Shown: one piece after another, positions 53,288 through 53,324 of the stretch
Numbering within the stretch: position 1 is the first letter of the stretch
Layout of the letters: each line of letters begins with the position of its first letter
The notes under the pieces: model-generated
What the model was told of the DNA's origin: nothing
The model's input: the letters and a program-made list of their open reading frames with translations, nothing else
Databases searched by the model: none
NCBI GenBank assembly: GCA_020833345.1
Contig: JAJHQM010000002.1
Span: 6,190 to 70,189, forward strand
Source of the DNA: Ignisphaera sp.
Lineage (GTDB): Archaea > Thermoproteota > Thermoprotei_A > Sulfolobales > Ignisphaeraceae
Direction of reading: 5' to 3'
DNA: 64,000 bases
Position numbers and translations under genes: made by a program

Positions 53288-53324
53288 ATCCCCACCCAAA
53301 CCACTAATCTTGGTGGTTTGGGTT
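53288..53324 (-). other. 37-nt bulge-helix-bulge intron in cbf5 pre-mRNA
   Basis: mRNA sense AACCCAAACCACCAAGAUUAGUGGUUUGGGUGGGGAU. Outer helix GGGG/CCCC, central helix CCCU/GGGG, bulges AG^A and AU^A, 11-bp inner helix. Removal restores the frame and the [10 protein letters not shown] motif. Confidence 0.75.

Follow-up and report, generated by a model that had tools for sequence, protein, structure and literature searches.

The window, as we call the whole 64-kb stretch of archaeal DNA analysed here, carries on its minus strand a cbf5 gene that is interrupted by 37 nt (53288..53324, AACCCAAACCACCAAGATTAGTGGTTTGGGTGGGGAT, equal to AACCCAAACCACCAAGAUUAGUGGUUUGGGUGGGGAU), and we are confident that this insert is an orthologous copy of the known archaeal cbf5 pre-mRNA intron, present in an uncultured Ignisphaera-like crenarchaeon. 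Its removal restores both the reading frame and the GGTLDPKV motif of the pseudouridine synthase. The finding is correct but already known, since our survey of related genomes reproduces the distribution described by Yokobori et al. 2009; the phenomenon has been documented since 2002, the same genus included. The window intron extends a well-documented case, the classic one for the splicing of protein-coding genes in Archaea, by one further species.

Splicing of cbf5 pre-mRNA was shown from 2002 onwards in Aeropyrum pernix and Sulfolobus species, and in Aeropyrum and Sulfolobus its cleavage was demonstrated to depend on the endonuclease EndA, which recognises a fold that resembles a bulge-helix-bulge (BHB) (PMC2738675). 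The first-pass annotation had named such cbf5 introns in these two genera, correctly (Yokobori et al. 2009, PMC2738675). According to the same source, the intron of Desulfurococcales and Sulfolobales splits the catalytic Asp codon after its first letter, is cleaved between residues 2 and 3 of the bulges, and is ancestral to the two orders together, with losses in Pyrodictiaceae and Ignicoccus. Most of the structures are "unconventional BHBs" that need the hetero-oligomeric (heterotetrameric) endonuclease of crenarchaea (PMC2738675). For Ignisphaera aggregans a 39-bp intron was listed, and its spliced cDNA agreed with the prediction; spliced cDNA from this species and from others is given there as unpublished results (PMC2738675).

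With the crenarchaeal cbf5 intron of these studies (Watanabe et al. 2002; Yoshinari et al. 2006; Yokobori et al. 2009, PMC2738675) the window copy shares the gene and the insertion point, the flanks CCCUAG|A...GGGGAN|A, the inner hairpin, the relaxed BHB form and the short length class, as well as the host group (Desulfurococcales/Ignisphaera, within the Desulfurococcales/Sulfolobales lineage). It differs from the copy of I. aggregans DSM 17230 in length (37 versus 39 nt), in hairpin sequence and in species. The window Cbf5 shares 68% identity with its I. aggregans counterpart and 77-78% with those of the nearest metagenome-assembled genomes (MAGs).

The cbf5 gene and its predicted spliced product

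The gene had been described as two minus-strand ORFs, and their coordinates are exact: 53586..53179 (135 aa) and 53255..52494 (253 aa). From the ORF list and the translation, exon 1 occupies 53325..53586, starting at TTG 53586 or, alternatively, at ATG 53562; similarity to the N terminus of Hyperthermus Cbf5 reaches upstream of the ATG (alignment A1). It ends in GGG GGG ACC CUA G, the last G being letter 1 of the catalytic Asp codon. Exon 2 (52494..53287) opens with AC CCC AAG GUA, which supplies letters 2-3 of that codon followed by Pro-Lys-Val, and closes with a stop codon at 52496..52494. The mRNA-sense sequence quoted in the first-pass annotation matches the letters of the window, and removal of 53324..53288, exactly 37 nt, does join ACC CUA G to AC CCC AAG GUA in a single frame. 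The resulting ORF has 351 codons from TTG 53586 and 343 from ATG 53562.

The insert separates the first nucleotide of the catalytic Asp codon from the second (GGTL|DPK), and the predicted spliced junction reads CUAG|ACCCC, i.e. CCCUAG|ACCCCAAG. As had been proposed, the junction codon is GAA (Glu) in the genome and becomes GAC (Asp, G|AC) solely after the deletion. Because an A is repeated at both borders, the placement of the junction is ambiguous by one nucleotide: a cut of 53323..53287 would give an identical mRNA, and the BHB rule of cutting after bulge nucleotide 2 picks 53324..53288. When this rule is applied in silico on each side, it yields exactly the in-frame Cbf5 with the catalytic Asp.

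The conceptual spliced protein is a full-length Cbf5 in which the catalytic Asp and the PUA domain are in place. Two NCBIfam equivalogs match it over its whole length, NF003280 with 469.7 bits (curated cutoff 242) and TIGR00425 with 450.7 bits. Against Pyrococcus Cbf5 structures it scores E = 1e-107 to 1e-111, and the alignment to PDB 2aus (E = 5e-111) is gap-free over the splice junction, with GGTLDPKV ungapped. The unspliced frame reads Glu, then shifts and terminates at 53181..53179, so that only a spliced mRNA can give active Cbf5.

A predicted relaxed bulge-helix-bulge at the intron borders

The nucleotides around both borders, exonic as well as intronic, are predicted to fold into a BHB-like splicing motif that spans 53274..53340 (covariance model R1 and minimum-free-energy fold). 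For the 66-nt segment 53340..53275 the fold has -33.8 kcal/mol (z = -3.96; 0/200 shuffles fold as well). Its elements are an outer helix of 5 bp, the 3x3 internal loop GGA/AUA, the central helix CCCU:GGGG, the bulge AGA and an 11-bp hairpin, and at 85 C the same architecture is predicted to remain the most favourable one. Read along the minus strand, the outer helix begins with UGGGG of the His/Gly codons (53334..53338), which pairs with CCCCA of the Asp/Pro/Lys codons (53286..53282). The central 4-bp helix joins exonic CCCU of the Thr-Leu codons ACC CUA (53327..53330) to intronic GGGG (53293..53290), a pairing seen both in the minimum-free-energy fold and in the homologues. The 5' bulge AG|A (53324..53326) has its predicted cleavage between 53325 and 53324, and the 3' bulge AU|A (53287..53289) between 53288 and 53287. 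Between them lies the inner hairpin (53294..53323), a perfect 11-bp helix of 53323..53313 with 53304..53294 that is closed by an 8-nt loop.

The register first described for the outer helix, GGGG/CCCC with one unpaired A opposite the 3' bulge, is 2.3 kcal/mol less stable than the register given above, while the central helix and the bulges are the same in both. The label "near-canonical" holds for the central helix, the strict 5' bulge and the flanking helices; the 3' cleavage site, however, sits in a small internal loop and not in a strict bulge. In the window intron, as across the cbf5 intron family, 1-3 unpaired nucleotides oppose the 3' bulge, so that the 3' side is a relaxed bulge, and the predicted fold is of the relaxed or "unconventional" BHB type and not the strict hBHBh' type. 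A strictly canonical alpha4 or alpha'2 endonuclease might fail to cut the window site, because its 3' side is not a strict 3-nt bulge.

BHB introns of archaeal tRNAs and rRNAs, processed by EndA and RtcB, share the 4-bp helix with 3-nt bulges, the cut after bulge nucleotide 2, the enzymes and an intron interior that has no sequence requirement. The cbf5 intron differs from them in the non-canonical placement of its 3' bulge within a small internal loop, and in its host, which is an mRNA, so that the exon strands of the motif are at the same time codons.

Both strands of the 64-kb window were scanned for BHB geometry. A hit had to combine a 4-bp helix, bulged by 3 nt on either strand, with an inner helix of >=4 bp; the outer helix had to reach >=3 bp, and 0-3 unpaired nucleotides were allowed opposite. 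The cbf5 site ranks first (score 52), and none of 40 dinucleotide-preserving shuffles reaches it, the best attaining 50. ARAGORN and Rfam report no intron-containing tRNA in the window; the Rfam search returned five tRNAs and one chance match, and holds no family for the cbf5 intron.

Conservation and covariation in related genomes

One genome per species was sampled, giving 80 cbf5 loci. In 35 of them exactly the same codon is interrupted at the same point, by inserts 21-57 nt long. The carriers include Ignisphaera, Desulfurococcaceae, Acidilobaceae and an Aeropyrum MAG. Loci free of the insert (Pyrodictiaceae, Caldivirga, Pyrobaculum and others) show a continuous GGTLDPK or GTLDPG. Seven loci that failed the peptide anchors turned out to be intronless variants with LDPG-VSG. 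When the rule for the intron boundaries is applied to I. aggregans DSM 17230 (CP002098.1), it gives a 39-nt intron, the value in the published table (PMC2738675).

Nearly all of the insert-bearing loci fold by themselves, by minimum free energy, into a BHB architecture like that of the window. Among 34 distinct homologous sequences the central helix CCCU:GGGG is invariant (34/34) and the 5' bulge is AGA in 31. In the 3' bulge the first two positions vary and the final A is constant (34/34), with ANA in 30/34. The inner helix, on the other hand, varies freely in sequence and length while its pairing is kept. The RNAalifold consensus is a BHB with compensatory changes in 9 of 16 pairs; in the inner helix of the relatives, 8 of 9 pairs show two-sided changes. 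Base pairs fill 96.5% of cells as against 81.9% in shuffled alignments, and the covariation score is 0.442 as against 0.165, a value that 0/500 shuffles reach; sliding the pairing partners by one column lowers pairing to 57-66%.

The pattern of pairing extends into the coding sequence. In the outer helix, the pair in alignment A2 formed by columns 6/56, which are the third positions of a Gly codon (G/A) and of the Asp codon (C/U), is GC in 14 sequences and AU in 4. In window coordinates this is the pair 53286/53334, through which the third letters of the Asp codon and of a Gly codon on the other side of the intron covary. Codon choice for Thr-Leu (window 53327-53332) also follows the intron, ACC CTA being used in 33/35 intron-bearing cbf5 genes versus 1/38 intronless ones, the latter employing 16 different Thr-Leu codon pairs. 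To judge from these codons, synonymous, RNA-level constraint acts on the exonic strand of the central helix only where the intron is present.

The motif is distinctive enough to be searched for. Covariance model R1, built from 19 introns with the window and its two nearest relatives left out, matches the 64-kb window once, at 53274..53340 on the minus strand (71.8 bits, E = 3e-20; next-best match 9.5 bits). A simple sequence pattern, ACCCTAGARC-N(8-38)-GGGGANAYCCNAARGT, was used to scan metagenomes, and all 120 of the 120 matching contigs have the insert flanked by coding sequence for G[TS]L and DPKV.

The broken frame and the two ORFs that are called in it might suggest that cbf5 is a frameshifted pseudogene, or that the 37 nt result from a sequencing or assembly error. 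The identical 37 nt, however, occur in four independent metagenome assemblies from hot-spring samples (ENA ERZ27249349 and JGI 3300005860, 3300028675 and 3300045904), whose genomes are 99.1-99.7% identical to the window over 20 kb. Decay or error is also at odds with the recurrence of inserts at exactly this codon position, in 35 genomes and on 120 contigs from metagenomes, where the fold is conserved and paired bases have changed in compensation. The strong conservation of both exons at the protein level, with 470 bits to the Cbf5 equivalog and no further defect, speaks against it as well. The pseudogene or artefact reading is already contradicted by these data, and we regard it as highly improbable.

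Proposed splicing mechanism

We propose that the cbf5 transcript would fold locally into a relaxed BHB, in which CCCU of exon 1 and GGGG of the intron form the central helix, the intron's own 11-bp hairpin provides the inner helix, and Gly codons paired with the Asp/Pro codons make up the outer helix. The tRNA-splicing endonuclease EndA, expected to be of the broad-specificity (alpha-beta)2 form in crenarchaea, would cut after bulge nucleotide 2 on each side (after 53325 and after 53288). RtcB (35944..37383) would ligate the exons and would probably circularise the 37-nt intron. The junction CUAG|ACCCC would create GAC, the catalytic Asp of GGTLDPKV, and the mature mRNA would be translated into active Cbf5. 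That cleavage and ligation actually take place in the window organism is suggested by analogy with the published work on Aeropyrum, Sulfolobus and Ignisphaera.

The RNA 3'-phosphate ligase gene rtcB does lie on the minus strand of the window where it had been placed (35944..37383; 574.7 bits to Pfam RtcB), within an ORF that extends to GTG 37440. The protein is 83% identical to RtcB of I. aggregans, and the closest relatives of both Cbf5 and RtcB of the window are found in Ignisphaera genomes and MAGs. No endA gene was found in the Pfam tables for the 64-kb window.

A different way to obtain Cbf5 from this locus would be to translate the two ORFs separately and assemble the products without RNA splicing. 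The division of domains would allow for it, exon 1 corresponding to DKCLD and exon 2 to most of TruB_N plus PUA, with possible start codons. Neither ORF, however, would supply the catalytic Asp: exon 1 has Glu in its place and continues out of frame, and the exon-2 ORF begins downstream of the motif, at LGKATRV. With a protein in two pieces, neither the RNA structure nor the synonymous constraint that acts on ACC CUA would have a role, and cDNA from relatives shows splicing (PMC2738675). A split Cbf5 is therefore scarcely credible.

Ribosomes could also, in principle, bypass or frameshift over the 37 nt by translational hopping, as in phage T4 gene 60. We consider this extremely improbable, even though the gap contains a stable hairpin and is comparable in length to known bypass gaps. 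Matched take-off and landing codons are absent, and L-D-P-K needs an Asp codon that is built from nucleotides 37 nt apart. Moreover, inserts of the relatives range from 18 to 57 nt, and what is conserved among them is the substrate of an endonuclease, namely a 4-bp helix with flanking 3-nt bulges.

If the intron is spliced as proposed, one may still ask whether splicing is constitutive housekeeping, or whether intron retention is a regulated switch that tunes the level of Cbf5 and thereby of the H/ACA RNP. The very long persistence of the intron in many lineages and the invariably non-productive nature of unspliced RNA would fit a switch, as would the parallel with HAC1/XBP1 splicing. In that system (Ire1 plus Trl1 or RtcB) a short, structured mRNA intron is likewise removed by non-spliceosomal cleavage with a change of frame, and in metazoa the ligation is of the RtcB type, as proposed here for cbf5. 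HAC1/XBP1 splicing differs, however, in its endonuclease, in its twin stem-loop motif and in being stress-regulated, and it is unrelated by descent. Several lineages (Pyrodictiaceae and others) have lost the cbf5 intron with no obvious consequence (PMC2738675), and no regulator is evident, and we judge a regulatory role unlikely.

Stop codons in the intron reading frame

A regularity of a different kind emerges when the introns are read in the frame of exon 1. A first sample of 33 distinct introns was widened by the metagenome pattern scan to 109 distinct introns of 18-57 nt (loci L001-L080, L087-L206 and L207, together with window 53288-53324). In the first sample a stop codon occurs in the exon-1 reading frame in 28/33 introns versus 7/33 in each of the other frames. 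The larger sample shows the same bias, with a stop in the reading frame of 83/109 introns (76%) and in the other two frames of 13/109 and 20/109 (12% and 18%; Fisher test, p ~1e-27, relatedness ignored). Counted by phase, stop trinucleotides number 95 in the reading frame against 23 and 14 in the others.

Introns whose length is a multiple of three carry an in-frame stop without exception (36/36), and the others do so in 47/73 cases. Every sampled intron that lacks an in-frame stop shifts the frame, and the 37-nt intron of the window belongs to this minority. Since all 3n introns contain a stop and all stop-free introns shift the frame, no unspliced cbf5 message in the sample yields full-length protein. 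The bias persists among 40 greedy representatives chosen at >35% divergence, with a stop in frame in 27 as against 8 in each other frame, and in 11/11 of those with 3n length. Single-linkage clustering, tried for the same de-replication, collapsed the introns into six uninformative chains and was replaced by the greedy representatives. An apparent excess of 3n lengths in the first sample (23/33) is a sampling bias, as the larger sample has 36/109 (33%).

From these sequence comparisons it appears that selection acts on the family of cbf5 introns to make the unspliced mRNA untranslatable into full-length protein, a reading whose chances we regard as even. If it is true, the stops could be a fail-safe against a catalytically dead and possibly dominant-negative Cbf5, in which Asp is replaced by Glu and an insertion follows. 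Alternatively, they could serve to free the BHB of ribosomes and so let it refold. Confirmation would mean that translation, in addition to recognition by the endonuclease, shapes the introns of archaeal mRNAs. Yokobori et al. 2009 note that some introns keep the frame (PMC2738675) and make no mention of the stop-codon pattern, and a further literature search returned nothing on it. This regularity, and the H/ACA-like RNA adjoining rtcB that is described below, may be new.

Consequences for annotation

It had been anticipated that automated annotation would break the locus in two, and this is what gene callers do: in the four metagenome assemblies cbf5 is called as a gene of 127 or 135 aa plus a gene of 232, 241 or 242 aa. 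The 135-aa gene contains the DKCLD domain and the 241/242-aa gene TruB_N and PUA. The nearest database proteins are accordingly "exon-2-only" entries of ~240-270 aa (99, 85, 84, 77, 77, 75, 75, 70, 69 and 68% identical), the 68% entry being that of I. aggregans DSM 17230, and full-length matches appear only at <=60% identity.

The finished genome of I. aggregans DSM 17230 (CP002098.1 nt 151951-153036; L207 1225-2310) likewise has cbf5 annotated as two genes, encoding a 91-aa DKCLD protein and a 269-aa protein. The 91-aa gene ends at the in-frame TGA of the 39-nt intron; the ATG with which the 269-aa gene ("tRNA pseudouridine synthase B") begins also lies within the intron.

Because cbf5 is called as two genes in every assembly examined, an essential H/ACA pseudouridine synthase is misannotated across the clade. 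The practical value of the present analysis lies in annotation, as the covariance model and the simple pattern recover the cbf5 intron specifically.

A candidate H/ACA-like small RNA beside rtcB, and other genes of the window

A possible second intron near rtcB, at 35838..35883 on the plus strand (BHB score 51, second in the scan after the cbf5 site), was rejected: it does not lie in a gene, and is the internal loop of a conserved hairpin that precedes an ANA/ACA box. This GC-rich hairpin (35821-35897, plus strand), between the PRTase gene (35034..35729, minus) and rtcB, is a candidate H/ACA-like sRNA. It has a lower stem of 8-9 bp (GGCCCCCG/CGGGGGCC), an internal-loop "pocket" (UUCGGCCGA / GUCUCUG) and an upper stem capped by a kink-turn-like UGAU...UGA motif, with AUA (an ANA box) 15 nt after the upper stem. 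As folded, the hairpin has the layout of an archaeal H/ACA guide RNA. It is conserved in the syntenic rtcB-PRTase spacer of two Ignisphaera-like genomes (L210 2738-2813 and L211 2666-2741), where the 3' box is ACA; the corresponding spacer of I. aggregans looks different. The conserved copies are too similar in sequence to display compensatory changes, and Rfam returned no match for the candidate.

Nop10, with which Cbf5 is partnered in the H/ACA RNP, is encoded at 34033-34257 on the plus strand (Pfam Nop10p), just after eIF2-alpha, and cbf5, nop10, rtcB and the H/ACA-like sRNA are all situated within the ribosomal-protein supercluster of the window. Elsewhere in the window, two adjacent genes matching Pfam CedA1, a family of the crenarchaeal DNA-import Ced system, are found at ~25371-27051 (plus strand), after an Lhr-type DEAD helicase (22413..25313) and before two PCNA genes and the primase small subunit. 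Downstream of cbf5, a small gene for an MTS-domain methyltransferase (51890-52504, minus strand) overlaps its 3' end by 11 nt. In I. aggregans, too, the gene for an L14e-like KOW protein is followed by cbf5 and then by that for the methyltransferase, which suggests a conserved operon.
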